A stretch of DNA of 63,858 nt, the filler included. It is 5 parts of 5 records of this genome, joined end to end, with 100 filler letters (N's around TTAATTAATTAA, not from the genome) between each part and the next. Parts side by side here need not be neighbours in the genome. Positions count along the whole stretch, not along the records: positions 51,395 to 58,726 come from DRR723986_8689; 4 more parts are not named here. One strand, given 5' to 3'. Position 1 is the first letter of the stretch, and each line of letters begins with the position of its first letter. A program made the position numbers and the translations under genes. The notes beneath the pieces are model-generated. The model made no database searches. It had not been told where the DNA came from and was given only the letters and a program-made list of their open reading frames with translations. Shown here piece after piece: positions 9,639 to 63,858 of the stretch.

Positions 9639-9643
9639 GATCG

Positions 9644-44200: not shown

Positions 44201-44281
44201 GGGGCTACGTGCTTTTGTCTTTGAGGATAATGGATGAGCTTCCTGCCCCGGCTTGCGGATCGGAGCAGGAAACCCGAAAGG

Positions 44282-45454: not shown

Positions 45455-45467
45455 ATGGTTGATCCAC

Positions 45468-47767: not shown

Positions 47768-48327
47768 CGCGTGCCCTCCCGTGCGTGCATGGCCTGGGCC
47801 TCTTCTTCAGCCTCGGCAATTGCGTGTTCGATTTCCGCGTGTTCCCGATCAACGCCGGCGGCAGCGTCGCGCAGCGTGCGTGGCAGCGTCAGCAGCGTTC
47901 CGATGATCATGAGACCTGAGGTGATGGGGATGACCGATTGCACGATGTCGAGCGTCATCCACGGAAGGCTGAGGAGTGAATCCCACTTGGCAACCGCCAG
48001 AACCGCATAGCCGTACCAGGCAACAATTGCGAAGAAGGCGATGACGAGCAGTTCCGAAAAGGCCGTCAGGGCCACCGCCAGCCCTCTCGGCATGGCAGTC
48101 ACCAGGCCGGAAAAGGACATGTGATGCCGCATGAAGACAGCGTAGGTCGCGCCGAAGTAGGTCAACCACGCCAGCATCACGCTGGCCAGTTCGTCGTACC
48201 AGGACGGCGAAGCCCCCAGATAGCGCATTGTCGTCGAGTAGATGACCGCTCCCGTCAAGGCGAGCAGAAGTGCGATGCAGACAGCCTCGATTGCGCGCAA
48301 CAAAAGGCGCTCGAACAAAGCAATCAT
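47764..48327 (-). CDS. dctQ: TRAP transporter small permease
   Basis: Four TM segments, RY...W.DELA motif, located between dctP and dctM. Confidence 0.9.
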   Translation of the reverse strand: MIALFERLLLRAIEAVCIALLLALTGAVIYSTTMRYLGASPSWYDELASVMLAWLTYFGATYAVFMRHHMSFSGLVTAMPRGLAVALTAFSELLVIAFFAIVAWYGYAVLAVAKWDSLLSLPWMTLDIVQSVIPITSGLMIIGTLLTLPRTLRDAAAGVDREHAEIEHAIAEAEEEAQAMHAREGTR

Positions 48328-48392
48328 GGCTCCTCCCAGAGAAATTGCCGGCCGGTTGACCCGGCCGGCTGTTTTGTCAGTGTCTTGTTTGA

Positions 48393-49376
48393 TCAGTCGG
48401 CAAGGCTCTGCGCCAGCCCCACCAGCTTGTCGCCACCCTCAACCTTTGCAGCAAAGGCTTCGTAGATCGGCGCAGACGCTGCGATGAAAGCGGACTTGTC
48501 GGCCTCGTTCACCTCGACCCCGGCGGCACGCACCTTGTCGACCAGCTCCCTGTCCGCGGTCTCGCCTTCATTGAGCGACCAGTCCTGCACCGAAGCTGCA
48601 ACTTCGGATACGGCCGTCTTGACGTTTTCCGGCAGCTTGCCCCAGGTTCCGGCACCCGTCGTCAGGTAGGTCGGCGAATAGACGTGACCTGTCAGGCTGA
48701 GATACTTCTGAACTTCCTGGAAATTGGCGCCGACAATGTTGGTGAGCGGATTTTCCTGCCCGTCCATGGTGCCGGTCTGCAAGGCCACGAACACTTCCGA
48801 AAATGCCATCGGAGTCGGGTTGGAGCCCCATTCCTTGAACATCGCGACGCGCCACTCGGAAGACGGTGTACGGATCTTCAGCCCGTCCAGGTCGGCCGGT
48901 GTGTTGATCGGGCGGGAGTTGTTCGTGATCTGGCGGAACCCGTTTTCCCAGGTCGAAATCACGTGAAGGCCTGCGGCTTCAGCCTTGGGCGCCAGTTCCG
49001 TCTTGACCAGATTGGCGTCGATGGCCTTCAGATGCTCGCGGTCCTTGACGAGGAACGGCATGTCGAACAGGGCGAATTCCGGCGCCACGTTGGTCATGAT
49101 GGACGAAATCAGGGTGAACTGCACGGTGCCGAGACGCAGCTTCTGCATCAGCTCCTTCTCGTCGCCCAGCTGTGCGTCGGCATAAAATTCGACCTTGTCG
49201 GCATCGCCGAGGCGCGCCTGCAGCTCCTCGGCGAACTTCTGCGCGCTGCGGCCCTGCAAGCTGTTGGAAGCTGCGCCAACGGCAACGATGTAGGTCTCGG
49301 CCTGCGCCGGCAGCGCACCGAAAGCAAAGACGGACGCGAGCAGGCCTGCACAAAGGCCCTTGTGTATCTTGTTCAT
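48393..49376 (-). CDS. dctP: TRAP substrate-binding protein
   Basis: Signal peptide, ENGFRQ, GLKIR and ALQTGTMDGQEN motifs. Start at MNKIHK. Confidence 0.92.
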   Translation of the reverse strand: MNKIHKGLCAGLLASVFAFGALPAQAETYIVAVGAASNSLQGRSAQKFAEELQARLGDADKVEFYADAQLGDEKELMQKLRLGTVQFTLISSIMTNVAPEFALFDMPFLVKDREHLKAIDANLVKTELAPKAEAAGLHVISTWENGFRQITNNSRPINTPADLDGLKIRTPSSEWRVAMFKEWGSNPTPMAFSEVFVALQTGTMDGQENPLTNIVGANFQEVQKYLSLTGHVYSPTYLTTGAGTWGKLPENVKTAVSEVAASVQDWSLNEGETADRELVDKVRAAGVEVNEADKSAFIAASAPIYEAFAAKVEGGDKLVGLAQSLAD

Positions 49377-49673
49377 TGATGTCTCCTCCACTTGACGGGA
49401 CCGACGACCGGCGACGGACGTCAACTCCCACCTAAGGGAACCTAGTGAAAGTCCGTTGCCAAGAATAATGGGAAGACAGGATCGACCGATAACCAAATGG
49501 AATTGATCACACCTGTTGCGAAAACCATGAGAGCAAGTACCAGCACCTGCTGCAAGCCCGATAACGGCGGTTTCCGCCCCTTGTCCCAAGCCGAAATGCA
49601 GCGTTCTGTAGCCTGATCAACCGAACTTTGGCACAGTCTGGCACTGCCAGAAATCAACCGGAAGGCCCATGGC

Positions 49674-50576
49674 GTGAAAGCCCAATATGTGGAACTGATC
49701 GACGCTGTCGCGACCCTTGGAAGCCTGGCGGCCGCCGCGAAGGTCCTTGGAAAATCTCAGCCAGCAATCACCAAGGCGTTGAAGAAGATCGAGGGCGACC
49801 TCGGCGTTGTTCTGTTTCACCGGGTGCCGAGCGGCATCGTGCCGACACTGGAAGGCCAGACCGTTATCGACCGTTGTCGCCGCATCCAAAGCGACCTGAA
49901 GAAGCTTTCGGAAGATGTCGCCCAGTCACGCGGGCAATATGTCGGCATGATTTCCGTGGTGGTCTCGCCGCTCGCCGCACTGAAGATCATTCCGCCGGTG
50001 CTGCGCCGGTTTCAGAACCGGTTTCCGGGCATCGAGCTGAACATCACCGGAGGCCACGCCCCGAAGGCCTTTCACGCGCTGAGGTCGGGCGAAGCGGATT
50101 TCGTCATCGGCCCGGCTCCTGACGGACAGCCCAAGGCAGGGCTTCATGTCGAACCGCTGCTGACGACATCAGTGACCTTCCTCGCGGGCCAGCAGTCCTA
50201 CCTGAAGGACCTGTCAAAACCGCAGGACCTGTTGAACGCACGATGGGCCGTTATCGGCCCGAGCAGCCGCCGCCCTCTTTTTCAGGACTTCTTCCGCCTG
50301 CACGGTCTGCAAGGGCCCGCCCCTGTCATCCGCTCCGATTCGATCCTCAGTATCCTGTCCGTTCTGGAACAGTCCGACATCGTCTGTTCGTTTCCATCGC
50401 TCATTGTGGACGAGGTCAGGGAACGGTGGTCCGTGACGGCGCTACCTGTCGACCTGAGCATGCTGACGGTGGATATTGCCCTTACCTGGACCAAGGAAAG
50501 GCTGCTGACGCCTGCGGCCCTCGCCTTTGCAGACATCGTTCGCGAAGAAGGCCGCAATTGCGCTCCCCAGACATGA
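49674..50576 (+). CDS. LysR family regulator, divergent from the TRAP operon
   Basis: GSLAAAAKVLGKSQPAITK..KKIE HTH. Confidence 0.9.
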   Translation: MKAQYVELIDAVATLGSLAAAAKVLGKSQPAITKALKKIEGDLGVVLFHRVPSGIVPTLEGQTVIDRCRRIQSDLKKLSEDVAQSRGQYVGMISVVVSPLAALKIIPPVLRRFQNRFPGIELNITGGHAPKAFHALRSGEADFVIGPAPDGQPKAGLHVEPLLTTSVTFLAGQQSYLKDLSKPQDLLNARWAVIGPSSRRPLFQDFFRLHGLQGPAPVIRSDSILSILSVLEQSDIVCSFPSLIVDEVRERWSVTALPVDLSMLTVDIALTWTKERLLTPAALAFADIVREEGRNCAPQT

Positions 50577-50692
50577 TTGGATATAACCTGAAGTTATATC
50601 CATGAGTTCGAGTTAATTGAGGGATATACCTCCGGAGTGCTAGTCTTCCCCCCAAGAAGGCCGCAGAAGCGGCACCTTGGGAGGACATCTGA

Positions 50693-51294
50693 GTGAATAT
50701 CCTGTTCGTCATGTACGACCAGCTGCGCTTCGACTATCTGAGCTGCGCGGGACACCCTTATCTGCACACACCGAATTTTGACCGGGTTGCCGCCAGGGGC
50801 GTGCGCTTTACCAATGCCTATGTGCAATCCCCCATATGTGGCGCCAGCCGGATGAGCTTCTACACCGGGCGCTATGCGTCCTCCCACGGGGCACAGTGGA
50901 ATGGCTACCCGCTCCGGGTCGGCGAACACACGCTGGGCGATCACCTGCGCAAGGCCGGCATGGACTGCTGGCTTATCGGCAAGACGCACATGAAGGTGGA
51001 TGCGGAAGGCATGACCCGGCTGGGGCTGTCCCCGGACAGCATCATCGGTGCCCGGCAGGCCGAGTGCGGATTTGATGTCTGGGTGCGGGACGACGGTCTC
51101 TGGGGCGAAGGGCCGGACGGCTTTTATGACGAAAAACGTTCGCCTTACAACGAATACCTCAAGTCCCGCGGCTATGCGGGAGAGAACCCCTGGGCGGATT
51201 TCGCCAACGCCGGCGTCGAAAACGGCGAGAAGGCGTCCGGCTGGATGTTCGACAATGCGGACAAGCCCGCCAATATCCGCGAGGAAGACAGCGA
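50693..51294 (+). CDS. Sulfatase/phosphonate monoester hydrolase family protein (truncated)
   Basis: NILF.M.DQLR, TPNFD, CGASR (formylglycine-type CxxxR) and GKTH motifs. Confidence 0.88.
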
Positions 51295-51394
51295 NNNNNN
51301 NNNNNNNNNNNNNNNNNNNNNNNNNNNNNNNNNNNNNNTTAATTAATTAANNNNNNNNNNNNNNNNNNNNNNNNNNNNNNNNNNNNNNNNNNNN
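51295..51394. other. Artificial contig linker
   Basis: N44-TTAATTAATTAA-N44. Confidence 0.99.
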
Positions 51395-51666
51395 GGTCGA
51401 GCCCTTAGGGCTGGATCCCGTTGTCTTGAAGACTGAATTCAAGAGAATTCCAGCTAACATCCACTCAAGATCTCCTCAATTCTTCGAGCTGTGAATCTTG
51501 CGGCCGGCAATCAGCCCCCACGCCCGGAATTCAGCTCCTTAAGCCCTTCAACCCGTAACTCGCAGCTTAACAGCTGTCGGCACGCCGCGGCGCAATCCGC
51601 CGATTTTGAAGTCTTATCAGGTAACAGTTAACAAGCTGAATACCCGCGTCAGACCAGGATAAAACC

Positions 51667-54600
51667 ATGAATACATTTCAGCAAAACCACAGTCCATTTC
51701 CTCAGGCAGGCCCGCAAAACAGTCGGCAGGCGGGCGAACAGAAAACACAGCGCATTCCCGGCACAGAACACTCGCTGGAATTGCACTACGATTCTGAAGG
51801 ACGGCTCTTGCGTCTGACAGGGGGCGGCCGCGAGTACATCAGCACCGATAATACCAAACGTCGTTTTGATTCTGGTTTTGCAGAGTTTGAAGAAATATTT
51901 GCCGCCGGTGCGCTTCTGCGCCGCGTAACAGTTATGGGGCGCAGCTGGACAGAGTTTTATCGCTGGGATGACCAGGCGCGTCCAACTGAAGTGGACGGCA
52001 TGCGTTTAACACGCGATGACTCTGATCGCGTAACTGGCTGCGAAGGGCATGGCCAGAGCTGGGAATACAGCTATGCCGATGACGTACTTGTACATGTTAA
52101 AAGTCATGCGACTGAGCGGCTGTTAAGTTATACGGCCGACCAAAAGCCTGCTGCAGTTAAACACGGTGACAAACAAGAAAACCTCCAATACGATTTGAAC
52201 GGCGATCGCCGGGCAATAGAGGGTACTCCCAAGACCTGGCACCGCGATGAAGAGGGGCGCCTGTGGGCTGTCTCCGATCAGCAGGGAACAATCCTGAGTA
52301 CTTACCTGTGGGACGAATTTGCATGCCTGGCACGCATAGATGGCCCCCCGGGCGGACCAATTGTTGAAGTTTATTCACTGGATTTGGGCGGAACGCCGGT
52401 ACGTGTAGCTACAGCCGAAAATACAACAATTATTCCACGCGATTTGTTTGGTGAAAACTTAACAGCACATGCTGGAGTGCCGGGACTGTTTGGCGGTGCG
52501 CAGCACAAAGGCATGGTGTATTTTGCCTATCGCAGTTATGACCCCAAACTGGGTTTGTTTAACTCGCCGGATCCACTCGATGGCAGCGCCGAAGATCCGC
52601 GCCGTGAAGAAGGGTTCACTGGCACCTTGATAGCCGAAAAAGCGACGGCGGCGGGTTACGGAGTCTGCGGCTACGATACGTATACTTACTGCGATCCGAC
52701 CGGTGCAATCGCCTGGTACTACTTGCTTTCGTCATTAACATGGGCTTTCCCGAATAACTGGTTCCTGACCTTGGGAATGGACTGGACGATTAACTTTTGG
52801 GGTAGCCTATTCTCCGGCAATATCGGTCGCTTTTTTAACTTCAGGCATATTCACAGCGACAGGTTAAACGTTGGTGGTGTGCTGCGTGACGGCGTCATGG
52901 CCAGCGAACGCGCGTTTGCCACACAGCACTATATCTGGGAGCAATTTGACTCCTTTGACCAGGCTAAAAATGTAATGGTCTGCGCGCCGGGTGATCGATT
53001 TTTACCGGGCTACTATGGCACGACCCTGCGCATGGTCGAAAACTCCAGCAGCCGAGCGTTTATGCTGCGCGGAATGCGGCGTTATGCTTACGACGGTGAT
53101 ATCAGCAATGATTATCCGGCCGGCTGGACGCGGCATGGCGGTGAGGCCGAAGCAATTGCACCAGGAGTGTTAACACCTCACTTTCCAGGTGGCGGCTTGC
53201 ACCTGGGGGACATGTTTACTGAATCGATTAACTGTACACCAACGTTCAGACCACCAGTACAGGGGCCTACAGATGCTACGATCGTAGAGCTGGAGCCGCT
53301 TGGGCCGATTGGCGTTGGGACTGCGAATACCAGAGTTGAAAGTTCGGTGCCCGAGCATGGCCTGGGTTTAAGTGAGAACGATTGGGTGGGCATGGCCGAC
53401 CCCAGCAACCGAACATTTGTTACACAAATACGTTCAGCGGTCGAAGAATCGAACGGCACAACCACGCTGCAGTTTAACCCTGATCCGACCGGGCTGGATA
53501 CTGCCGAACTGCGACTGCGCGGCCTGGAGGAAGACCGAACAACCGAAAATTTAACAAATATGACGGACCCGAACCGTCTGGAGACGACGGGTTCTTCTGA
53601 GCAATATGCTGTCGGTGACTATTTGCATCTGCGGCAGGGAAGTGATGATCGCGGATTTTCATTCATTACGGCACTCGAAGCGCGCGTGCAGCTGGATGCT
53701 GCGTTCACGGGGCCTCCAGGTTGGCCCGGAGCTGAGGTATTGCCGGTGGTTACCAGTGGATCTGTTAATACCGCCGAGTTAACAGCCTCGGGAACTGATA
53801 TTAACTTTCCGGATTCTCCGCGGCCCAGTAGCGGAGACTTAATCCGAGTATTCGACGGTACAAATGATATTGCTGTAGTTGTTGGAGCTGAAACGGGTAA
53901 CCAACGCGCAGTGGACCGCAGTCTGGCAGTCATGGGTGGCACGGGAACGTCCGTTAGCTGGCAAAACTTAACCGCCGGTGGCTCCATTGGAATTGCCGCT
54001 ACTTTTGACATCACGGCGCAGTTAACATTTGCACCCGAAGTTGTGCGCACCGCACCTTCCAGCGGATTCCTGGCTGTTCGCAGGCAGGACGATGTGGTGC
54101 AGGTACGCCGCGTGACGAGTCGTGATCACGATGCAATCGTCCTGGGGCCGGCAAAAACCGGAATTGCGGCAGACTACAGTGTCGAGCTGTTTAAGGCCAA
54201 AGACCCGAATGCAACCGACATGGGCATTCGTACAGTCTTCCAGCTGGCAGCGCCATTGACCACCACCGGTGCCGTCGCCCTGCAAATTCATCAGTTAACA
54301 AATGACACGCTGGCCGCTAATCTGGGCGGCACAAGCCTCGCGGGTTTTAGTCTGAATGCCGAGACGCTGAGTCAGCCGCTAACAACATATAACGCGAATG
54401 AGTTACGCCCATCGCAGGTAATAGCGCTGGATGACGGCAGCAACCAGGAAGTCGCACTGATTCGCAGTGTGGTCCGCGATGTGCTGCTGGACCGCGATCT
54501 GCCGATTCCCTCGGCAACGACTGACCTGCGCGCCGTACTGCTCGAAACCACGGGTGTTAACTACAGCGCCACCCGCATTTCAAACTCACGCCTGGTAGTG

Positions 54601-57600
54601 CTGCCGAACGCCTTCGGTGCGACTACCAGACTCGAAATGCCGCGTTTCTTTGAAGGCGAATTAGTTGAAGTGCAGTACTCAGCGGGTGGAACCCAAAATG
54701 ATCAGTTCCGGGTGACGGCGGTCTCGGGAACGCGTTTAACACTTGCATTCGGCCGCGCTGACTTGCCGGCAGGTGCCAGTGATTTCCGCGTGCGCAAATT
54801 GGCAGTTGCCGATCCGGATACGGGCGGCGGATATATCGCAATTAACGGCGCACCTTCACTCAGCAATCTTGGTGGCGCCAACACGCGCATTCTGCGTTTT
54901 CATCTCTGGAATTGGTCCAACCTGACCAATACCGAACGTATTGGTATAATCCATGACGGACAGACGCTGCCGGCGCGCATTCGTTTGCAAACGGCGTATG
55001 ACTGTACGCAGGCCGATCCGAACCCCGAGATTTTGAGTGTTGCGTCTTCGGTTGGAGGTTCAACGACCGGAATCTCAATGCCGCAGTTTGTTGTCGGCGA
55101 GCGCGTCGAAGCCGCCTGGGACCCCAGTGGCGGTGGAGGACGCCAGACGGAATTGTTTAACGTTTCAGCGGTTTCAGGAAGTGTTGTAACGGTCTTGCAT
55201 GACGGCGGCGCAGGCATGATTACGGCCGGCGCATCCAATATTACACTGCGCCATTTAGGGACGCTCGATATTAATTTAGGTGCGGCGCCCGCATCTGCAA
55301 GCGGCACAATTGCCATCCGCACACTGGCGCATTCGAACAACAACATCTGGGCTCCTGGTTTTACCGCCGAAACCGGCCAGACAATTGTACTTGCACCCGA
55401 CATCACCGGGACTTTAACACCCGGCAATCGCCAGGTTGTAGTTATACCTTTGCGCGAACTGGGGACACCAGCCGCAGCAGTTATGGAGCCCGGGGGAGTG
55501 CTCGTGCCGGAAGATCCGGAAAATTGGGAGCACAACCGCTATCAGTCCCTGGTGGAACACGAGCTGCGCCACACCGAGCAATATCTGTGGTGGGGACCAC
55601 TTTGGTTCACAGCATTTCCGCTCTGGGCTTTTGATCTTGGCTTTTCCTATGCCGCGGACGTGGATCTGCCGCGCTGGTCGGCCTTTGTGGCGGCAACGAT
55701 AGAACGCGACAGCAACAATAATGCGATTCGCCTGCTGCGCATCCCAAATGCTGAAGGCATTGAATTTGGCGATAACTCACACGTGCAGATTTTTCGCGGC
55801 TCGCTGCGTGAAACCGCTGAGTTTAACGCCGAACGCGCCAGTGACCTGTTCCAGATTAAACCCAAGGCTTCGGGAGAAACGGCACTGCCCGACGGCCCCG
55901 TGTTTGTCCGCAAACTTAACTCCGCACTCGGCCCCTCAGGCCAGGACTGGTACAGTGGAATTTATCAGGTATTTGATACTTTAACGCCGGGCGGCTTGTT
56001 AAACATCCTCTTTGGCGCCGGTTATGGTTCGATGATGCTCCTGCTGGTGCGCATTCCCTGGATGATTGCCAAAGCCTGCTCCACGTATACACGCCATGCC
56101 GTGACAGTATTGCCTTCACGCAATGAATTACAGTTGAGTGAAACCGGGCGGCGATCCGAATACACAAACGAACGCCGCGTAATTATTCGCCAGAACGGTC
56201 AGGACGACTTCGTACGCACACTGTCAAGCGTGGACGAAAGCGGAAAGTTAACACTCGGTTCAAGCCTTGGTTTTGAAGGCGCTGCCGAAGTCAGTCCCTA
56301 TGACACCAGCGTCGACAGTCAGTATTGGTACTGGCAAAAATATTACCCCGCAATTGTAAAAGCTGACAGCTTTGCGTCAATTACGGCGCAGGAAGAAGAC
56401 GGCGACCGCCTGGAAGTCTCGACTTTTGATCGCCTGCATATTATTGGCGAGAAAAATTCCAACCACGAGCGTTTCACCTTAACAACGACCGTAACGGCGG
56501 TTTCCGGCAATGACATTGAGTTAACAGATGCACTGCCTACCGACGCACTTGGCTCCTCGGATCAGGTACTGCGTGTTGCTAAAATCGGCCGCCAGGATAG
56601 TCAGGGACACGTTGAAAGTTTATTCCTCGATCAATACGGTCTGATGGGGCCCATGCGTTGGGTTTCCGATCCATTCCGTCAGATGCACCTGCGCAATATT
56701 GAAGAACCGGGCTCTGCCTGGGAGATAATCTCGCGGATTGCACGTTACATCTGGGGCACACATAACTGGAGCCTTGGACTGCCCGGTCACGTGTTTTTTG
56801 ACCGGCTTTTCCCAGGCGATGATGTTGCTTACCTTTCCGATATTGAGCAGGATTCATCCAACCAGAGTGGTGATCTCTATTCTGCGCTCGGGCGTCTGCG
56901 CGGAGATGTTAACATCGGCGATGGGTTTAACGCAACGATGGTGTTGGGCGATATTGCGCGCTACTGGTATTGGCCGAACCCACGCACGACGATGTTCCCG
57001 ACGCAGGCCGGTTGGTGCAACTCCAACTATAACCAGGATGTTCCCGGTGTTAACACCCGTCCCGCCGTTTGTGTCATGCCATTTGTAACAGCTGAATCAG
57101 GCGACGCAGCGCCGGGCAACGGAGCTGAGCCAAACAATAATGCTACAGCCGGCGCAGTCGGAACCCAACCGGGTCTGGCAGTCGCCGATGTTTTTTCTGA
57201 CAAAAATCCTGGTACTCCCGAGGATGTGCCCGGTGGTGGCGGGCCGCGACGAATCATGGCCAGCAATCGCGGATGGATTCCCACAAGCAAAACGCTCGGC
57301 CGCACGCAGGGAATGTACGTCGCCTTTACCACTCCAACAACTGGGGCGGACCGGCATCGCGTCACGACCGACAACGGAATTCTGCAGGCTGCCGAGGCAC
57401 GCCATGCGCAGGACGAAGGCAAGCAGAAGCTGCTCTACAATGTTAATGTTACCGACGTGACTGTAATGTTAAACGGCATTGCCGTCAGCGAGGGCATGAC
57501 AATTAATTTGTTAAAAACGCAGCGTGCGCGTTTTGTATGCACACCCAACAACAACCGACGCTATCGATTAACGGTATTACGTCCGGCGGACGGCGCGGTA

Positions 57601-58485
57601 GTACGCCGCAGTGACGAATTGGAAATTGACATGCAGGCGGCAGCTGCGAACAGCTCCGAACCTGTTGAAATCAGCCGCTACTATCGTTTTGACCCATCTT
57701 CCGGTCAGTTTGAGACTGGCGGCCTGATGCAGCACGGTGTGCACCTTCCAACCGATATCGACGTTGCGGTACGCCGTTTAACAGTTAACACTGTCGACAC
57801 ACCAATTGTCTTAAACAACCTGGCGGATGCAATCAACTTTGGCTCTTACGGTGGCACAATTCCGAGTCTTACTCCCGGCGCAGAGGTATTCGTGTTTATT
57901 GCCGCCAGTATCTTAAACTTTAACCCGGTAATTGGCTATCCGGGGACGCCGGCAATCGTTCACGCTTCGATTATTCAGGCCGATCGCACGTCCGCCGCAC
58001 CCGATACAAGCAAGGCTTTTCTGGGAACGGGCGCTAACGCAGGTGGCGTTTTTAGTTTATCGATTGACGCTAACGATCCACCTGAGGAGGAGGCGCACAT
58101 CACGGTCGACGTCTCAGTTGGAGCAGCAGCCAGTCCGGAGAGTTTAACACAGATTACGATTCCGATTACGGGGCATTTCCTGGCAACTTCGGGGGGCGCG
58201 TACACTGCGGCGGCTGGTGGCACGATCACACTTGACTGCGCAAATGTGGGTGGAGGCGGAGTCACACCCGACCCTGCTACGGTAGTGGTAACGATGCCGG
58301 ACGGTTCGGCACCTGCGGAAGTCAGCCCAGGAGTTCCGGAGTTAACATTTGCTGCGGGCGGCCCCAACCAGTTGGTGGTAACTGTTAACCCGGGTTTCAG
58401 CGGTGTCCTTGGCAATCGCCGTTTGTTAATAGAGGAGAGCGGCAACACATCGAACAAAGCGCGCCGGACGATCATATTAACATAA
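51667..58485 (+). CDS. 2272-aa protein: short YD/Rhs N-terminus with Rhs core (DPTG at aa 343-346), then a ~1900-aa C-terminus with repeated beta modules and HExxH
   Basis: YDSEGRLL, YDLNGDR, RSYDPKLGLFNSPDP and CDPTG motifs. HELRHTEQ at 55558-55581. AGGA RBS upstream. Uninterrupted 6.8-kb ORF. Confidence 0.85.
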   Translation: MNTFQQNHSPFPQAGPQNSRQAGEQKTQRIPGTEHSLELHYDSEGRLLRLTGGGREYISTDNTKRRFDSGFAEFEEIFAAGALLRRVTVMGRSWTEFYRWDDQARPTEVDGMRLTRDDSDRVTGCEGHGQSWEYSYADDVLVHVKSHATERLLSYTADQKPAAVKHGDKQENLQYDLNGDRRAIEGTPKTWHRDEEGRLWAVSDQQGTILSTYLWDEFACLARIDGPPGGPIVEVYSLDLGGTPVRVATAENTTIIPRDLFGENLTAHAGVPGLFGGAQHKGMVYFAYRSYDPKLGLFNSPDPLDGSAEDPRREEGFTGTLIAEKATAAGYGVCGYDTYTYCDPTGAIAWYYLLSSLTWAFPNNWFLTLGMDWTINFWGSLFSGNIGRFFNFRHIHSDRLNVGGVLRDGVMASERAFATQHYIWEQFDSFDQAKNVMVCAPGDRFLPGYYGTTLRMVENSSSRAFMLRGMRRYAYDGDISNDYPAGWTRHGGEAEAIAPGVLTPHFPGGGLHLGDMFTESINCTPTFRPPVQGPTDATIVELEPLGPIGVGTANTRVESSVPEHGLGLSENDWVGMADPSNRTFVTQIRSAVEESNGTTTLQFNPDPTGLDTAELRLRGLEEDRTTENLTNMTDPNRLETTGSSEQYAVGDYLHLRQGSDDRGFSFITALEARVQLDAAFTGPPGWPGAEVLPVVTSGSVNTAELTASGTDINFPDSPRPSSGDLIRVFDGTNDIAVVVGAETGNQRAVDRSLAVMGGTGTSVSWQNLTAGGSIGIAATFDITAQLTFAPEVVRTAPSSGFLAVRRQDDVVQVRRVTSRDHDAIVLGPAKTGIAADYSVELFKAKDPNATDMGIRTVFQLAAPLTTTGAVALQIHQLTNDTLAANLGGTSLAGFSLNAETLSQPLTTYNANELRPSQVIALDDGSNQEVALIRSVVRDVLLDRDLPIPSATTDLRAVLLETTGVNYSATRISNSRLVVLPNAFGATTRLEMPRFFEGELVEVQYSAGGTQNDQFRVTAVSGTRLTLAFGRADLPAGASDFRVRKLAVADPDTGGGYIAINGAPSLSNLGGANTRILRFHLWNWSNLTNTERIGIIHDGQTLPARIRLQTAYDCTQADPNPEILSVASSVGGSTTGISMPQFVVGERVEAAWDPSGGGGRQTELFNVSAVSGSVVTVLHDGGAGMITAGASNITLRHLGTLDINLGAAPASASGTIAIRTLAHSNNNIWAPGFTAETGQTIVLAPDITGTLTPGNRQVVVIPLRELGTPAAAVMEPGGVLVPEDPENWEHNRYQSLVEHELRHTEQYLWWGPLWFTAFPLWAFDLGFSYAADVDLPRWSAFVAATIERDSNNNAIRLLRIPNAEGIEFGDNSHVQIFRGSLRETAEFNAERASDLFQIKPKASGETALPDGPVFVRKLNSALGPSGQDWYSGIYQVFDTLTPGGLLNILFGAGYGSMMLLLVRIPWMIAKACSTYTRHAVTVLPSRNELQLSETGRRSEYTNERRVIIRQNGQDDFVRTLSSVDESGKLTLGSSLGFEGAAEVSPYDTSVDSQYWYWQKYYPAIVKADSFASITAQEEDGDRLEVSTFDRLHIIGEKNSNHERFTLTTTVTAVSGNDIELTDALPTDALGSSDQVLRVAKIGRQDSQGHVESLFLDQYGLMGPMRWVSDPFRQMHLRNIEEPGSAWEIISRIARYIWGTHNWSLGLPGHVFFDRLFPGDDVAYLSDIEQDSSNQSGDLYSALGRLRGDVNIGDGFNATMVLGDIARYWYWPNPRTTMFPTQAGWCNSNYNQDVPGVNTRPAVCVMPFVTAESGDAAPGNGAEPNNNATAGAVGTQPGLAVADVFSDKNPGTPEDVPGGGGPRRIMASNRGWIPTSKTLGRTQGMYVAFTTPTTGADRHRVTTDNGILQAAEARHAQDEGKQKLLYNVNVTDVTVMLNGIAVSEGMTINLLKTQRARFVCTPNNNRRYRLTVLRPADGAVVRRSDELEIDMQAAAANSSEPVEISRYYRFDPSSGQFETGGLMQHGVHLPTDIDVAVRRLTVNTVDTPIVLNNLADAINFGSYGGTIPSLTPGAEVFVFIAASILNFNPVIGYPGTPAIVHASIIQADRTSAAPDTSKAFLGTGANAGGVFSLSIDANDPPEEEAHITVDVSVGAAASPESLTQITIPITGHFLATSGGAYTAAAGGTITLDCANVGGGGVTPDPATVVVTMPDGSAPAEVSPGVPELTFAAGGPNQLVVTVNPGFSGVLGNRRLLIEESGNTSNKARRTIILT

Positions 58486-58507
58486 AAGTTAACATTAAAC
58501 AGATCAT

Positions 58508-58578
58508 TTCTTGACCGCTTTGAGCCCCGCCTTGGGGGCGGTTCTCAGGCTCTTTTGATTTTTATGTTTGTCGCTGAT
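58508..58578 (+). repeat. Dispersed ~75-nt intergenic element, copy B (terminator-like)
   Basis: TTCTTGACCGCTTTGAGCC-CCGCCTTGGGGGCGGT-TCTCAGGCTCTTTTGATTTTTATGTTTGTCGCTGAT. Confidence 0.75.
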
Positions 58579-58726
58579 GCTGCAGACCTGAGTCTGGGAT
58601 TCGGCAATTGAGACTGGAGTGAGTGGAGCTCTCTGCGCAGCAGACTCAAGTACTTGATGCTGAGACTTTGAGACTTGAGGTTTTGAGCCTCGAAGGATTA
58701 CGGCTCACAGCCCTAAGTGCTGTGAG

Positions 58727-58826
58727 NNNNNNNNNNNNNNNNNNNNNNNNNNNNNNNNNNNNNNNNNNNNTTAATTAATTAANNNNNNNNNNNNNNNNNN
58801 NNNNNNNNNNNNNNNNNNNNNNNNNN
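58727..58826. other. Artificial contig linker
   Basis: N44-TTAATTAATTAA-N44. Confidence 0.99.
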
Positions 58827-58833
58827 CGCCGTT

Positions 58834-58855
58834 GTAGGAGCGGTTTTAACCGCGA
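58834..58855 (+). repeat. GTAG-family REP (repetitive extragenic palindrome)
   Basis: GTAG-GA-GCGGTT-TT-AACCGC-GA: GTAG tetranucleotide plus short palindrome, at a contig start. Confidence 0.65.
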
Positions 58856-59054
58856 TAAGGGTTCCAACAGTGCTCATCGCCATCGGCGTTTTGGGCACTA
58901 GTTAAGCACTCCGAACCTGCGCGAGAGTAGAGGTGTTTTGGCTGGCTGGCCTGACCACAAATACCCTCCGCAACGATCAGACCAATAATAAAAACGTTCT
59001 GCACAGCGCGTAGTTCATGGCTATTTACCCTTCTGCTCGACAGGAGGATTTACC

Positions 59055-59747
59055 ATGACCCAACGAAATTGCTCGTCGCTGACCCACACCCCCGCCACGC
59101 CAGCCCCAAAAAACGCCACACCACCCGGTTGGTACAAGCCGCGTATTCGCGTCGCTACAACGGACGATGGCGCTCCGCGAGTGTACAAGCGCTACCCAAT
59201 GCCTGGGGCTGCCGCGAATACCTATTTTCGTTTTCTCGCCACCCACGAGTTTTCCATGCTAAAACAAATGGACCACTTTTCTTTTACCCCAAACTCGCCG
59301 CGCCTTAGCACGGCAAGCTTAACCTTGAGTTACTCCTACCTCCGCGGCACGCCGCTAAAAAGCTGGCCGCGCCATACTCCGCTACCGGCGGAATTTTTCC
59401 GGGCGTTAATCGCTGCAAGTCGTCAGATGCATCAGCATCAACTGGTCCACCTGGACTTGGGCAATGCCGGAAACATTTTGGTTTCGCCGTCGCAACAGCC
59501 TTTAATTATCGACTTTGGATCTGCCCTCAATACCTCACGCTTACCTGCCGTGATCCGCTGCTGGATGATGAGAAAAGACACCCTCGGCATTCTTAAGCTG
59601 TGGTACAAATTCAGCCGCGAGACCATGCCAAGCGCGCATCAGGAGTACTTTCTGCGTCACTACCGTAAAAACATTTACACGCCCAAACGTTTAAAGAAGG
59701 CCCTGAAGCGCCTCATTTTGCGCAAGCTCGGCGTTGCAGGTCGTTGA
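59055..59747 (+). CDS. Protein-kinase-like (RIO/Kdo/WaaP-like) protein
   Basis: VYK, HE, HLDLGNAGNILV and IIDFG motifs. Confidence 0.75.
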   Translation: MTQRNCSSLTHTPATPAPKNATPPGWYKPRIRVATTDDGAPRVYKRYPMPGAAANTYFRFLATHEFSMLKQMDHFSFTPNSPRLSTASLTLSYSYLRGTPLKSWPRHTPLPAEFFRALIAASRQMHQHQLVHLDLGNAGNILVSPSQQPLIIDFGSALNTSRLPAVIRCWMMRKDTLGILKLWYKFSRETMPSAHQEYFLRHYRKNIYTPKRLKKALKRLILRKLGVAGR

Positions 59748-59852
59748 TAGAACGACGGCAAATTCGTAATCAACAAAAAAGAAAAAAGGCGTATGGAAAA
59801 AGGGGAAACCACATACGCCAAGCAGGGAGGTAGAGGGGAAAGGCTTAAGCGG

Positions 59853-60302
59853 CTATTTCGACCACTTAGCAATTAAACGATCAACGGAGATTGCCCCCGC
59901 GCCATGCACTACGATGTAGGCGGCAAGCAAACCCCACACAAGGTGATACAACTCGGCCGCTGGCGCGATCGCCTCCAGGCTGATAACCGCGACAAAATTG
60001 ATAATAAAAATCCCAGCCGCGGCCGTTAGCGAATACAGCCCGAGCACTAACATCACCGGCAGCACCAGCTCGCCAGCGGTCGCAAGGAATGCCGCCACGC
60101 CGGCACTGAGCAAGGGCACGCTGTATTCCTCTTCAAACAGAAACAGCGTGGTTTCCCAGTCATCAATTTTGGTTAACCCCGACTTAAAAAATACCGACGC
60201 CAAATACAGCCTCGCCGCAAGTAACAGTAGCGGCGAAAGGTGCTGTACCCAGCCCCGCACTCGTTGTTCTAACATTGCTGATGTTACGACTAGTGTCTTC
60301 AT
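59853..60302 (-). CDS. DoxX family membrane protein (BufD-like)
   Basis: RLYLASVFFKSGLTK, LFEEEY.VP and GAG.ISVD motifs. Confidence 0.88.
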   Translation of the reverse strand: MKTLVVTSAMLEQRVRGWVQHLSPLLLLAARLYLASVFFKSGLTKIDDWETTLFLFEEEYSVPLLSAGVAAFLATAGELVLPVMLVLGLYSLTAAAGIFIINFVAVISLEAIAPAAELYHLVWGLLAAYIVVHGAGAISVDRLIAKWSK

Positions 60303-60314
60303 TGTCTTCTCCTG

Positions 60315-61106
60315 TTAGTTGACGCCCTCAGCACCGACGACGGCGCCGCTAGCGACCATTGTTTGTAGCCATGTCAGCAGCTCTGCCTCCGGCCATGCGC
60401 TTTGCGCAAACAAGCGCGCCACGCTATCACCGCGCTGGATGGCTTTGAGCAAAAGCAGCTGTTGTTGAGAGATCTCTTCCACCCGCACCTGCCAGCCCGA
60501 GCGAGTAACCAGTACCGCCTGTCCCTGCCCATGCGACAGCATGACCTTGGCGCGGCCGAAGGCGACGGTCTCTTGTGGATTCGGGTGCTTGTGGGCGTGC
60601 CAGATATGCGAGACGGGATAGCGCGAGACAAAAATAGCCAGCGCAGTATTCAATACCAAACGGCTTGTCTCAGCTTCCTGTGCCAGCCGCGCAAAGCTGT
60701 CGACATTGGCCAGCGCAAGCGCCGACTCCGCCACCTTCATCACAGCGTTATCTAGCTGCGCCACATCGACCAAGTAGTGAACCTGTCGCTGCAAACTGTG
60801 GCCAACCAACCAATCTGCCAGGCACTCACCAAACGCAGACCAGTCGCCACCGCGATTCGCCGTTGCACGCAAATACTGCACAGCCAGCGCCGCAAAAGTC
60901 TGCTCGCCCAGCAATCGCTTTACCGTGGGGTAACGGCTTGCCAGTGCTCGCTCTGCCCTCGCTTCCACGCCCTGGCGATAAAGCGCTAAGCCAGCGTCGT
61001 TATTTGACGAGGTGAAGGCCAACGGCGCACTTGGTAAATCGCCGCTATCGGACACTGCTTCGCCATAGATTGCCGCCAGAACACGGCTTTGCGACTCAGC
61101 CAACAT
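60315..61106 (-). CDS. DUF2063 / BufC-HvfC family peptide-modification partner
   Basis: LALYR...AL...YPTV..LLG...F, FGE.L..WL and YL.DVA.LD motifs. Overlaps the DUF692 stop. Confidence 0.85.
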   Translation of the reverse strand: MLAESQSRVLAAIYGEAVSDSGDLPSAPLAFTSSNNDAGLALYRQGVEARAERALASRYPTVKRLLGEQTFAALAVQYLRATANRGGDWSAFGECLADWLVGHSLQRQVHYLVDVAQLDNAVMKVAESALALANVDSFARLAQEAETSRLVLNTALAIFVSRYPVSHIWHAHKHPNPQETVAFGRAKVMLSHGQGQAVLVTRSGWQVRVEEISQQQLLLLKAIQRGDSVARLFAQSAWPEAELLTWLQTMVASGAVVGAEGVN

Positions 61107-61977
61107 CGACCCGCCCCTCGGCATGAATGTCCTGCATCAGCGCCCGCGCTTGATCCGCTTCGGCCACCAATCGCTCCAGGCTCGGCAGATTGTTATCCCA
61201 TTCCACCAAGGTGGGGCGCGCGCCAATGCCTTGCAGCACTTGTCGATAACACTGCCAACCAAGCTCGGAAACCGGGCAGGCATGGTCATCAATAAGCGTT
61301 TCCGTAGGGCCCACCTCCGTCGCGCCAGCCAGGTGAATCTCTACCACCGCCTCATGACCCAAGTCGGCGAGGTAGCGCTGCACAGCGGCGCCGACATCGT
61401 CTTCAGCGGCATTTCGGGCGTTGACCATCACATTATTCACGTCGAGGATCAGCCCACAGCCAGTGCCTGCAACCAGTTCATTCAAAAACTCTGCTTCGCT
61501 AAATTCACCCGCGCCCACATCGAGATAGGCGCAGACATTCTCGATAGCCACCTGTCGCCCCAACGCTTGCTGCAGTCGGTCTACATTGGCGATAGCATGT
61601 CGCAGACTCTCGCGGGTATAGGGAATGGGAAGAAGATCACCGCCGTGCACCAACCGGCCATTCACTTCGCCCCAGGCAAAGCAGAGGTGATCCGACACCA
61701 ACACGGGGTTGGTAGCGTCCACCAATGCCTTCAGCTTTGCAAGGTAGTCATCAGGGACCGCCACTGCTGAGCCCACACCAGCTGACGTGCCGTGCAAACT
61801 CAGCGCAACATGTTGCGAAAGCTCGACCAACAACTCCTTGAGCATTCCTCCGGCGGCAAAAAAGTTTTCGGAATGCACCTCGACAAAATCCACCGACACA
61901 CCCGTCTTCACCGCTTGAAGGAAATGCTCGGGACGCAGCCCGATGCCCACAGCCCTGGCACCCTGATGAACCTGCAT
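61096..61977 (-). CDS. DUF692 multinuclear non-heme iron oxidase (MNIO; BufB)
   Basis: GIGLRPEH, EVHSENF, SDHL, DLLPIP, IEN, LDVNN, EIHLAG, IDDH and EWD motifs. Confidence 0.93.
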   Translation of the reverse strand: MQVHQGARAVGIGLRPEHFLQAVKTGVSVDFVEVHSENFFAAGGMLKELLVELSQHVALSLHGTSAGVGSAVAVPDDYLAKLKALVDATNPVLVSDHLCFAWGEVNGRLVHGGDLLPIPYTRESLRHAIANVDRLQQALGRQVAIENVCAYLDVGAGEFSEAEFLNELVAGTGCGLILDVNNVMVNARNAAEDDVGAAVQRYLADLGHEAVVEIHLAGATEVGPTETLIDDHACPVSELGWQCYRQVLQGIGARPTLVEWDNNLPSLERLVAEADQARALMQDIHAEGRVDVG

Positions 61978-61981
61978 CGCC

Positions 61982-62260
61982 CTAGCCCTGTTGCGCGACG
62001 ATTTTCTTGGCAGTGGTTTTGTCGAAGCCACCCAAACTTTCGCAAGTGCCTTTAGCAACCAGCTTCCATTCGCCGGGGTCGTTCGCCACCTTGGACTGCC
62101 CCGCGCAGGAATGGGTACCCGCGATATTGCCGCAGTCATTGCCGCCCACTGGCGATATGCCGTAACACTTTTCCTTGCCACCGGCATAGGCGGCCGGACT
62201 CACCACCGCCCCAGACAGTGCGACTGCCAAAGCAGCGCCTATCATCAATTTCTGGTTCAT
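61982..62260 (-). CDS. DUF2282 bufferin precursor (BufA1 type)
   Basis: Signal peptide, then EKCYG...NDC...HSCAG...W..V.KGTC..LGG four-Cys pattern. Confidence 0.92.
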   Translation of the reverse strand: MNQKLMIGAALAVALSGAVVSPAAYAGGKEKCYGISPVGGNDCGNIAGTHSCAGQSKVANDPGEWKLVAKGTCESLGGFDKTTAKKIVAQQG

Positions 62261-62341
62261 TGCATTTACCTCTTTTTGTTAATGCCCCGCTGCCGGGGCA
62301 GTACAGCCTTTCATGTGCGGCGCAGTAACACCGCCGCGAAA

Positions 62342-62812
62342 TTACAATTCAGAAGCCGCCACATTTTGAATGTCACGCCATACATCGTTGGCTGTGTCGA
62401 TATAACCCGGCGCATCGGTCAACCAGCGCTTTTGTACATCTTTGTTCAGATTGAGATAGAGCTTGTTATCAACAATTTTCCACGCCGTCGGATCGGTATC
62501 GAGTTTCTTTTCCACCGACACACCAAAGGCACAGAAGCCGCCGTACTGCGGCGCATACGCAGCGGGGTTGTCGCGAAACATATTGCGGTTGCCCTCACTC
62601 ACAAAGTGATAGATGGCATTCTTGTAGGTTGCGGAATAGCGCGGCGATCCCTTTTTGGGTTGCGCTACGGTAAAGTAGGCCACAGGGTCATAGCCCTTAA
62701 TGGCCACATCATTCGCATCGGCGTTCATATCAATATCTGCAGCAAAGCTTGATAAGGACGCACCGAAAGTTGCCACGGCCAATAAGGTGTTTAATTTCTT
62801 CATGGTAGACAT
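62342..62812 (-). CDS. Secreted YHS-domain protein (Cys form of the YHS (seleno)protein family)
   Basis: Signal peptide, AIKGYDPVAYF, F..NP..YAPQYGGFCAFG and W.IVD.KLYLN motifs. Confidence 0.88.
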   Translation of the reverse strand: MSTMKKLNTLLAVATFGASLSSFAADIDMNADANDVAIKGYDPVAYFTVAQPKKGSPRYSATYKNAIYHFVSEGNRNMFRDNPAAYAPQYGGFCAFGVSVEKKLDTDPTAWKIVDNKLYLNLNKDVQKRWLTDAPGYIDTANDVWRDIQNVAASEL

Positions 62813-62924
62813 AAGATTGTTCCTGTTCGTTAATGGATGACTACGATGAATACATTACGCTCGGCCCGCTGGTGGTAATGGGTAGATCGTTCAAACTTTT
62901 GTGCAATTCATACGGAGTACACGC

Positions 62925-63782
62925 ATGGACAGGCTGTCGTATTTACTGGACCACCTAAACGTGAGTGCAGGCGTGTTCTTCACTGGCCAGCTATGCGGCC
63001 TGACCAACTTTGAAGAGAAAGATGTTGGCCATATCCACGTGCTGCGCTCAGGAACGATGGAAGTCATCGGCAGCGACAAACAAAGGCTCAGCATTGACGA
63101 ACCCTCGATGATTTTTTCCACCCGTAGTCATCGCCACCAACTCGTGGGGCAGGAGAACAATGGCGCGGAACTGGTCTGCGCCTCGGTGCGCTTTCAAACC
63201 GTAAATAGCAGCCCGGTTGTCGATGCTCTGCCAGCACTGGTCACCCTTCCACTGGCATCTGTGCGCGGGCTCGATACGTTTATTGAGGTGTTATTCGCCG
63301 AGGCCGATGCCCAGCAGGAAGGTAGCCTGGCAGTAATGAACCGGCTGATGGAAGTAATTTTTGTTGCCGTGCTGCGCCATATTATTTCTGAGGGGGAGTC
63401 ATCCAAGGGTATGCTCGCAGCACTGGCCGACCCACATTTAAACCGCGTGCTCAGTTATATCGGCGAGCAGCTAAATGGTGATTTATCCGTCGAGCACTTA
63501 GCCAACATCGCCGGCATGTCTCGCTCCTCGTTCATTCAGCATTTTAAGTCGCTACTCTCCGCATCGCCCGGTGAGTTTGTGCAACACGCACGTATTACCG
63601 CCGCCAAAAAGCTCATCCTAAAAGACAAACCCATGTCCGTCATTTGTCATAACGTCGGCTATGACGATGCCTCTGGCTTCTCACGCGCGTTCAAAAAAAA
63701 TACCGGCATCACGCCGCGAGAATGGAAAAAACTACACCTTATTGCGTCCAGTAATCACTCAAAAAACCTAGGGCACCTCTGA
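62925..63782 (+). CDS. AraC family regulator with cupin N-terminus (RclR-like)
   Basis: MDRLS.LL, two N-terminal-domain Cys (LCG, LVCA), ALADP.L, and AGMSRSSF / VGY....FSRAFK HTH motifs. Confidence 0.88.
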   Translation: MDRLSYLLDHLNVSAGVFFTGQLCGLTNFEEKDVGHIHVLRSGTMEVIGSDKQRLSIDEPSMIFSTRSHRHQLVGQENNGAELVCASVRFQTVNSSPVVDALPALVTLPLASVRGLDTFIEVLFAEADAQQEGSLAVMNRLMEVIFVAVLRHIISEGESSKGMLAALADPHLNRVLSYIGEQLNGDLSVEHLANIAGMSRSSFIQHFKSLLSASPGEFVQHARITAAKKLILKDKPMSVICHNVGYDDASGFSRAFKKNTGITPREWKKLHLIASSNHSKNLGHL

Positions 63783-63858
63783 CTAATTCGGTAATGGCTC
63801 AGCGGAGTCTCTGGCGTGCACTGGCGATGCGCAGCGCGAAGGTCAAGGGTGGTTCTCC

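Follow-up and report, generated by a model that had tools for sequence, protein, structure and literature searches.

The window analysed here, a stretch of 63858 nucleotides (63.9 kb), carries a giant gene whose 2272-amino-acid product begins with motifs of Rhs proteins. An earlier note on this DNA had described the product as an Rhs protein of inverted proportions, in which a mini-core of about 345 residues is followed by a payload of about 1900 residues with no immunity gene, and had proposed that the mini-core plugs into a separately encoded shell or injection system. The locus therefore raises the question of what such a protein is and with which machinery it belongs. Our analysis places the mini-core, in predicted structures, at the closing end of an Rhs shell, and it shows that in relatives the giant gene is the last of ~17 genes in a ~27-kb stand-alone contractile-injection cluster (six of the six genomes examined). 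The reading that we lean towards, by a modest degree, is that the giant protein is a self-processing payload, or payload-carrier, of an uncharacterised contractile-injection lineage.

The mini-core models as the closing part of an Rhs shell

The open reading frame (ORF) and its Rhs motifs are as the earlier note had read them: RSYDPKLGLFNSPDP lies at aa 289–303 and CDPTG at aa 342–346, and 1926 residues remain after G346. Profile searches recognise little of this, as the giant protein has no Pfam match at E ≤ 1 and NCBIfam TIGR03696 (Rhs_assc_core) matches aa 280–346 at 22.7 bits (E 1e-4), under its cut-off of 32.5. The protein was folded as two halves with family alignments, aa 1–1150 and aa 1201–2272, at a mean predicted local distance difference test score (pLDDT) of 76.3 and 78.0, respectively. 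With E values of 8e-10 to 2.5e-5, Foldseek matched the first-half model to the shells of teneurin, type VI secretion system (T6SS) Rhs and toxin complex (Tc) BC. In VIA-align, model residues 13–347 were superposed on residues 967–1420 of S. bongori Rhs (8qjb_A; Z 24.9, root-mean-square deviation 3.0 Å, 303 residues aligned), and also on Tse15 929–1395, YenC/RHS2 232–689 and the TccC3 part of TcdB2-TccC3 (1704–2157). An independent all-against-all structure run gave Rhs, TcC and teneurin structures in its top 14 rows (Z 15.9–24.7) versus a Z of 9.0 in the following row, which puts the Rhs nature of this fold far beyond chance; the TccC3 match of this run reaches up to the cleavage region. Because the model of aa 13–347 aligns to that part of the solved shells, we identify the mini-core, at the level of predicted structure, as the last turn of an Rhs shell with its closing plug, ending exactly at the putative autocleavage site.

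The giant protein has the same YD/RHS beta-hairpin fold as the T6SS Rhs effectors RhsA, RhsP, Tse5 and Tse15 and as TcC, and likewise an Rhs-associated core as the closure of the shell; where the repeat region ends stand RxYDPxxGxF, DP(I/L)G and, last, DPxG. It differs from them in extent. The repeats are limited to aa ~23–279 and match the last ~450 residues of solved shells, a complete closed cocoon was not found, and the ~325 residues of the mini-core make up about one third of a shell of 700–1400 residues, which agrees with the earlier claim that this core is too small to enclose its cargo. Further differences are the 1926 conserved residues after the predicted cleavage site, as opposed to a variable toxin of 100–300 residues, and an N-terminus that is not of the PAAR, VgrG-binding or TcB-binding kind. 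Scans with Pfam and NCBIfam gave no match to PAAR, VgrG or Por_Secre_tail in the giant protein, and its N-terminus is hydrophilic, with no hydrophobic stretch in a Kyte-Doolittle profile, so aa 1–22 are not a Sec signal; the earlier note had likewise reported neither a signal peptide nor a PAAR, VgrG or type IX secretion system (T9SS) C-terminal domain.

Alignment to the canonical Rhs cores P0155, P0159 and P0161 puts D302 (SPDPLDG) and D343 (CDPTG) at the two DPxG aspartates. These we take to be the catalytic pair of Rhs proteins, partly from the mutants named in PDB titles (TccC3-D651A; Tse15 D1369N and D1391N) and partly from the Rhs literature. The two aspartates are 41 residues apart, versus 23 in canonical cores, with an insertion of 18–19 residues between them. 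In the family alignment D302, P303, D343 and P344 are at least 90% conserved and G346 is invariant. D302 and D343 are thus candidate equivalents of the Rhs aspartyl-protease dyad, and cleavage is predicted from these motifs. A homotrimer prediction of aa 23–350, run with neither an alignment nor controls, returned a score of 0.00 and a mark of 0.32 and speaks neither for nor against closure of a cage by several copies. Three Rhs proteins of 866–1278 residues (P0131, P0135 and P0157) have the insertion-bearing core and a post-cleavage L-x-S-x-x-T-W-x-x-P-N helix in common with the giant family, and this plug-plus-helix module may occur on other bodies.

The giant protein belongs to a conserved, unnamed family

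A whole-length search identified 27 relatives (90% clustering) of 1704–2501 residues with 27–69% identity, and BLASTP showed them to be collinear with the query, from their residues 2–53 through the query C-terminal region. Searching 1.84 billion representatives with aa 1–350 alone gave 171 matches at E ≤ 1e-3 and 75 at E ≤ 1e-30. Nearly all of these 75 are 2000–2700 residues long and match by their N-terminus; short members among them look like fragments. Since all full-length relatives carry the mini-core, it is a conserved design and not the truncated remnant of a full Rhs protein. The earlier idea that the ~1900-residue C-terminal part might be polymorphic did not hold: this part is conserved, in collinear order, up to its final residues, and of the 40 longest relatives listed, most have alignments that stop no more than ~20 residues short of their own C-terminus. 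In this first tier the main exception is P0052, which has a C-terminal extension of 708 residues with a weak PETase-like match. By these comparisons the giant protein is a member of a conserved and unnamed family of proteins of ~2000–2700 residues.

A second tier of relatives (E 1e-22 to 1e-10, 1700–2570 residues) has a somewhat longer Rhs part, with DPxG near residue 495 and HExxHxxQ near 1250, and shares an EQ-x-AS-xx-SGDLYS motif. Pfam RHS_repeat reaches its cut-off in all 23 second-tier relatives; it is listed in 10 of 23 first-tier relatives, one of them above the cut-off. Two of the 23 second-tier proteins, P0102 and P0103, end in a PLDc_2 domain (E 8e-12). In these rare members, the phospholipase D (PLD) and PETase-like ends add toxin-like parts to a giant scaffold that is otherwise constant.

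Carriers span more than 10 phylum-level labels and include two cultured and harmless species, Cellulomonas xylanilytica and C. gelida, which open the partial Rhs shell, the DUF4157 motif described below and the contractile-injection lineage to direct testing. The C. xylanilytica homologue is WP_146926845.1. The publicly named members are all called “hypothetical protein”, and more than 100 protein clusters annotated in this way could be given names. The literature searched holds no description of this architecture; supplementary tables of extracellular contractile injection system (eCIS) surveys may list members. In two loci from long-read metagenome-assembled genomes (L013 and L019) the giant gene is split into 3–4 ORFs by frameshifts, which are probably sequencing errors rather than decay.

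In relatives the giant gene closes a contractile-injection cluster

We compared 19 loci from species-representative genomes, in which ORFs were called naively and clustered. Their labels include Hyphomicrobiales (69% identity), Kapaibacteriota, Ignavibacteria, Binatia, Terriglobia, Chloroflexia, Verrucomicrobiae, Gemmatimonadaceae, Thermoanaerobaculia, Rhodothermales, Nanopelagicales and Cellulomonas (two species). In 17 of the 19 loci the gene directly upstream of the giant gene belongs to a family of ~1085 residues (FAM2). The other two, L011 and L014, are probably not true absences, because the greedy ORF caller took a long opposite-strand ORF there. PHROGs identified FAM2 as a tape-measure protein (phrog_305, E 1.2e-11 and 1.9e-12; phrog_167 and phrog_1535 in a second-tier locus). 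Two paralogues of ~300 and ~540 residues (FAM1) are likewise found in 17 of 19 loci, and farther upstream, with counts limited by the 10-kb flanks, are FAM5 (~540 residues, 10 loci), FAM4 (~330 residues, 11 loci), FAM6 (166 residues, seven loci) and FAM7 (~340–425 residues, seven loci). FAM4 retains 52–64% identity across phyla, and FAM6 matches phrog_5417, a family of unknown function. Pfam recognised none of the proximal families FAM1, FAM2 and FAM4–FAM7, and PDB profile searches with FAM1b and FAM4 gave no meaningful match. Second-tier metagenome relatives are also preceded by FAM2, and one of these loci, L030, adds FAM4, FAM5 and FAM1.

Five genomes (L020–L024) were extended 20 kb further upstream. 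All five contain a sheath gene (Phage_sheath_1C; phrog_279, 4e-23), a Baseplate_J gene (phrog_6, 9e-42), a tube-like gene of 129 codons, an unknown gene of 409–549 codons, DUF6046, a GPD/gp44-like hub and a Phage_base_V spike. A PAAR match is present in L021 and L023 only, and gp25 in L020 and L021 only, the other genomes having an ORF in the gp25 place. Between the baseplate-J gene and the giant gene lie FAM7, FAM6, FAM4, FAM5, FAM1a, FAM1b and FAM2 (L001 689–9922, with equivalents in L002–L019 and L030). In a sixth genome, G121, the sheath and giant genes are 17 kb apart on one contig, and this sheath type was found in two of 401 sampled genomes of the phylum of G003, namely G003 and G121. 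The cluster is phage-tail-like and rare yet widely scattered, and its seven distal genes are entirely unannotated.

The earlier note had proposed a tie between the protein and a shell or injection system. A tie to an injection system is borne out in the relatives, where the gene sits at the 3′ end of such a cluster; a Tc-type shell partner was not seen among the partner genes, as RHS, TcB and TcA Pfam models matched none of the 55 cluster and partner proteins scanned, a set that does not extend to whole genomes. Over the same genome pairs, identity is 58–71% for the sheath, 50–63% for baseplate-J and 29–38% for the giant protein, which travels with the cluster and evolves in the manner of a peripheral part.

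The relatives' clusters share with eCIS of the Afp/PVC type a sheath, tube, hub, spike, PAAR, gp25, baseplate-J and tape-measure-like gene. They differ in seven further conserved genes that have no Pfam annotation and in their sheath, which had no match to PDB sequences at E ≤ 0.01. A further difference is that Pfam recognised neither an AAA+ ATPase nor a DUF4255 cap among the conserved cluster genes within the 20-kb flanks, several genes there being unannotated.

A PVC-metallopeptidase-like motif and the body after the predicted cleavage site

The second half of the protein contains a zincin motif, HELxHxxQ (aa 1298–1305), in which all 28 of the 28 sequences share H1298, E1299, L1300, H1302 and Q1305. 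The HExxHxxQ-E signature is present, the acidic residue ~22 residues on being D1324 in this protein and E in the family consensus. PF13699 (eCIS_core, formerly DUF4157) is listed around HExxH in five of 23 first-tier relatives at 13.5–22.2 bits and reaches its gathering score in one of them (P0023, 22.2 versus a cut-off of 22); among second-tier relatives it is listed in one of 23, at 16.9 bits. For aa 1265–1480, the ESM Atlas gave as a lead, at 0.85, a cluster in which 29% of members have eCIS_core.

According to Zhang et al. 2012, the PVC-metallopeptidase is defined by HExxHxxQ-E and was proposed as the releasing peptidase of toxins exported by PVC-type systems; these authors also mention, from Pedosphaera, a C-terminal PVC-metallopeptidase that comes after an RHS array, an arrangement different from that of the giant family (PMC3482391). 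DUF4157 is given by Geller et al. 2021 as a core marker of eCIS and of their 3′-encoded toxins, with linkers sometimes >1000 residues long (PMC8213781), and by Danov et al. 2024 as occurring in 36% of known eCIS toxins versus 0.06% of other genes (PMC11297309). In AlgoCIS, Xu et al. 2022 located Cgo1 and Cgo2, both of them DUF4157 cargo, inside the lumen of the tube (PMC8894135).

The giant protein has HExxHxxQ in common with such payloads (Cgo1 and Cgo2 of AlgoCIS, eCIS-associated toxins), and in relatives its gene, like theirs, is 3′-terminal in a CIS cluster (proximal genes in 17 of 19 loci, sheath plus giant gene in six of six); as with many eCIS-associated toxins, the relatives have no conserved adjacent immunity gene. 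In contrast to them, its zincin is central, with ~1270 residues before it, and the N-terminal peptidase plus variable toxin arrangement was not found: ~950 conserved residues follow, and the C-terminus consists of conserved beta arrays and not of a swappable toxin. Nor does it have a long disordered N-terminal packaging region, the unconserved N-terminus being ~22 residues. The giant protein is therefore part Rhs/TcC plug-like and part DUF4157 payload-like, and it fails defining features of both. Two rules are broken in a conserved manner, that Rhs forms a closed cocoon round a small toxin and that DUF4157 is the N-terminal tag of swappable CIS toxins.

The remainder of the body is largely made of beta domains. 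The post-cleavage helix is modelled at aa 351–383 with low confidence. The six-stranded barrels of aa 537–1105 are L3-like (Z ≤ 9), and windowed self-BLAST found a single duplication, aa 984–1075 versus 1131–1227 (E 5e-12); aa 1101–1200 are gapped in 61–78% of the 28 aligned sequences. In the second half the order is the HELRHTEQ helix, a barrel, a hydrophobic helical hairpin, two barrels, a helical domain with EQ...SGDLY, and immunoglobulin (Ig)-like sandwiches to the end, whose fold matches were PrgB, titin, RTX adhesin, Sap S-layer protein and FdeC. Strongly hydrophobic stretches are limited to aa 1442–1465, 1931–1949 and 2064–2092 in the Kyte-Doolittle profile. In VIA and Foldseek runs on the two ~1100-residue models, the Rhs part and the Ig-like arrays drew most of the matches, and the zincin module, aa 384–530 and aa 1648–1738 were barely probed. 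The family profile, run against PDB sequences, returned chance-level matches only (E 0.44–0.81).

Payload or structural part of a contractile particle

Under the reading that we favour, the protein would first be cut after DPTG by its own Rhs protease, as the motifs predict. The one-third shell, too small for 1900 residues, could serve as a cover for the hydrophobic helix just beyond the cut. Carried by the CIS, the protein would leave with the tube or spike upon contraction, and after firing the metallopeptidase module and the hydrophobic hairpin would act on or in the target envelope. That rare relatives add PLD or PETase-like ends suggests that the C-terminus reaches the target. Also in favour are the faster evolution of the giant gene relative to core genes and the search of 2.9 million viral contigs, which gave no relative and because of which a prophage-tail reading was lowered. 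Afp18 of the Serratia antifeeding prophage, a toxin of >2300 residues with enzymatic toxin domains whose gene stands at the 3′ end of its CIS cluster, is comparable by description in giant size and position, whereas no enzymatic toxin domain was found in the giant protein. The association of DUF4157 with eCIS toxins at the 3′ end of operons points the same way (PMC8213781, PMC11297309).

Several observations weigh against this reading. The window itself gives no link between the giant gene and a CIS: the partner families are absent from its entire length (best tblastn E 0.002), and the 271 bp upstream of the gene are non-coding, where in 14 related loci FAM2 ends 0–158 bp before the giant gene or overlaps it. 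At the window gene, either sequence may have been inserted between cluster and gene or the gene may have become detached from the cluster. The conserved cluster genes of relatives, as noted, have no Pfam-recognised AAA+ ATPase or DUF4255 cap. The query itself falls below every Pfam threshold, its DUF4157 motif is central (aa 1298 of 2272) and not N-terminal as in described cargo, and no toxin or enzyme domain besides the zincin motif was recognised (Pfam and NCBIfam on the query, Pfam on the relatives). Autocleavage is predicted from motifs alone. Known eCIS payloads are variable, whereas the giant protein is conserved over its full length and no examined cluster of this lineage lacks it, as would rather be expected of a structural part, and in the models its body resembles phage tail-tip, tail-tube and fibre proteins.

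These last points lead to the strongest rival, a tentative one that we consider clearly less probable, in which the protein is a structural subunit of the contractile particle (tail tip, hub extension, fibre or membrane anchor) and the Rhs plug and zincin serve assembly or maturation. Its collinear full-length conservation over more than 10 phylum-level labels would fit, as would its presence in six of six clusters having sheath and giant gene and its position right after the tape-measure-like gene. Phage tail-tip and central-fibre proteins such as lambda gpJ and siphophage Tal occupy that same position and are also strings of small beta-barrel or Ig-like domains. Weak Foldseek and VIA matches were to the tail tips of lambda (8k35_A), Chi and JBD30, to the JBD30 baseplate and to the tail tubes of T1 and Mystique. 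In BFVD, the first half matched phage proteins described as structural, tip-attachment-J or tail-fibre (E 3e-8 to 3e-5, low TM), and for aa 1640–1800 the ESM Atlas leads were Prophage_tail, Sipho_Gp37 and YQBQ clusters at 0.89–0.91, weak and of low recognition (1829). The Ig-like arrays resemble those of S-layer proteins and adhesins. Against this stand the middling quality of the tail-protein matches (Z ≤ 9, TM ≤ 0.14) and the parts that the cluster already has, namely its own hub, spike and PAAR, with the eCIS fibre slot between baseplate-J and the tape-measure-like gene filled by five other unknown genes. Rhs cores and DUF4157 are known from effectors and not from structural parts, and some relatives carry PLD or lipase-like ends. 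Unlike the giant protein, phage tail-tip proteins have neither an Rhs plug nor a DUF4157 motif, and the giant family was not found in viral contigs.

A further reading is speculative and, in our view, rather improbable as a whole. It supposes a working “open” Rhs, in which the plug and last turn, alone or completed by further copies or by unknown cluster proteins, shield the hydrophobic post-cleavage helix on the particle; the pre-cut 1900-residue body, with its zincin, membrane hairpin and Ig-like arrays, would be released on firing, and the cluster would represent an undescribed, ATPase-less CIS lineage transferred across more than 10 phyla. If true, Rhs would here be coupled to a delivery machine in a third manner, next to the PAAR-Rhs of T6SS and the BC cocoon of Tc.

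A stand-alone inverted Rhs toxin, with the mini-core docking into a separate Rhs/Tc-type shell and a large polymorphic cargo that needs no immunity, appears unlikely. The mini-core does correspond to the plug end of TcC/Rhs shells, a Tc shell is built from two proteins in TcdB2-TccC3, and plug and post-cleavage helix recur in the shorter proteins P0131, P0135 and P0157. The C-terminal 1900 residues are conserved and not polymorphic, though, and the scanned partner proteins offer no RHS/Tc Pfam match. The missing immunity gene is an effect of the contig end: the earlier statement that no immunity gene or small ORF follows loses its basis, because the contig stops 241 bp past the stop codon and the absence of such a gene cannot be judged there. 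Among 21 related loci no downstream ORF of at least 40 residues within 1.5 kb is shared, except in the near-identical pair L001/L002; two short weak matches (38 and 28 residues) look like chance. Relatives accordingly have no conserved immunity gene, in which they differ from Rhs/TcC systems.

A decayed remnant or misassembly, with a truncated Rhs fused to an unrelated long ORF, might be suspected from the short contig and from bin contigs that differ in GC (0.525–0.635) and GTTAAC content, and is hardly credible, since the ORF is uninterrupted and 27 plus 75 independent relatives, drawn from many assemblies and including the two cultured Cellulomonas, have the same architecture. A defence-system reading was dropped because PADLOC had no match below E 0.0017 for the query or for 10 partner proteins.

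Layout of the window

The window consists of five contigs joined end to end (1–13448, 13549–40693, 40794–51294, 51395–58726 and 58827–63858), as is evident from the four N44-TTAATTAATTAA-N44 linkers (13449–13548, 40694–40793, 51295–51394 and 58727–58826). Gene order across the linkers carries no meaning, and the LysR, TRAP, sulfatase and RIO-like kinase genes that flank the giant gene in the window are on other contigs. The contig of the giant gene begins 271 bp 5′ of the ATG. Because the gene is alone on a short contig, its own cluster is not visible, and the missing neighbours are an assembly effect. The 271 bp contain no 3′ end of a tape-measure-like gene, and the 32-codon open frame at the contig start has no resemblance to FAM2 C-termini. 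Features of this contig and of the giant protein are collected in Table 1.

Table 1. Coordinates of the giant gene, its contig and the modelled regions of its product (window positions)
Feature	Residues	Position	Strand	Description
Contig of the giant gene		51395–58726		7332 bp; bounded by linkers on both sides; giant gene is the sole gene
Region 5′ of the giant ORF		51395–51666	+	271 bp; stops in six frames; AGGA 9 nt before the ATG
Giant ORF, P0001	1–2272	51667–58485	+	2272 aa; single uninterrupted ORF
N-terminus	1–22	51667–51732	+	Hydrophilic, poorly conserved, low-confidence model
RHS/YD beta-hairpin repeats	23–279	51733–52503	+	~13 hairpins; pLDDT mostly 85–94; modelled as last Rhs-shell turn
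Rhs-associated core	280–346	52504–52704	+	RSYDPKLGLF; D302-P303; D343-P344-T-G346; family-specific insertion of 18–19 aa between
Aromatic/hydrophobic helix	347–383	52705–52815	+	Conserved; directly after predicted cleavage site; W359 and G370 invariant
Low-confidence region	384–530	52816–53256	+	Invariant W487-x-R489-x-G491-G492 ... F506-P507-x-G509-G510-x-H512
Small beta-barrel/beta-sandwich array	537–1105	53275–54981	+	Middling matches: L3-like barrels, phage tail-tube/tail-tip proteins
Duplicated barrel	1131–1227	55057–55347	+	Tandem copy of aa 984–1075
PVC-metallopeptidase (DUF4157/eCIS_core)-like module	1277–1330	55495–55656	+	HELRHTEQ at 55558–55581
Helical hairpin	1422–1471	55930–56079	+	Contains the most hydrophobic stretch of the protein, 1442–1465
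Helical domain	1648–1738	56608–56880	+	Ends E1727-Q1728-x-x-S1731-x-x-S1734-G1735-D-L-Y1738; common to second-tier family
Ig-like beta-sandwich array	1800–2272	57064–58482	+	Conserved through C-terminal ...ARRTxxxx
Terminator-like hairpin and T-rich tail		58531–58559 (hairpin 58531–58549)	+	Weak call

The terminator-like element of the earlier note exists as a hairpin, and the number of such sites in the scan, 9 versus 8.9 expected from shuffles, gives it no weight as a terminator. A 14-nt inverted repeat, AGCCCTTAGGGCTG and CAGCCCTAAGTGCT (93% complementary; 51400–51413 and 58708–58721), lies 5 nt from each end of the contig and may be due to chance or be a palindromic repeat that broke the assembly. 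The sulfatase gene at 50693–51294 (Pfam Sulfatase, positions 2–108 of 301) is cut by the end of its contig and is not a disrupted gene.

Composition and neighbouring genes

The GTTAAC excess reported by the earlier note is real, with 12 sites in the giant gene versus 1.3 expected. The long residence drawn from it does not follow, because the closest homologue genes in other assemblies carry the excess too (12 sites in L001 and seven in L002, with none in L004), and GTTAAC is ~6-fold enriched over the whole L001 and L002 loci. The five contigs have, in order, 1, 21, 0, 14 and 1 sites, so that contig 2 alone of the other four shows an excess (21 versus 5.9 expected). TTAACA and GTTAAC are the top over-represented hexamers, TTAACA being enriched 19-fold in the giant-gene contig and 5-fold in contig 2. 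This enrichment looks like a lineage-wide signature; it may tell which contig the gene belongs with, and not how long it has been resident. The GC contents of the contigs are, in order, 0.635, 0.525, 0.600, 0.545 and 0.548, and with such differences in GC and GTTAAC content the bin may be mixed.

The GTTAAC-rich contig 2 encodes, among housekeeping genes, a 758-residue protein (26600–28876, + strand) with DUF7619, DUF11 and a weak match to Por_Secre_tail, a T9SS C-terminal domain, which hints at a T9SS-bearing host for this contig. On the last contig we identified a trio of genes for DoxX, DUF2063 and MbnB/TglH/ChrH (DUF692; E 5e-82) on the − strand (59853–62187), with a pair of the kind that modifies precursors of ribosomally synthesised and post-translationally modified peptides, and an ORF with a YHS domain at 62342–62812.

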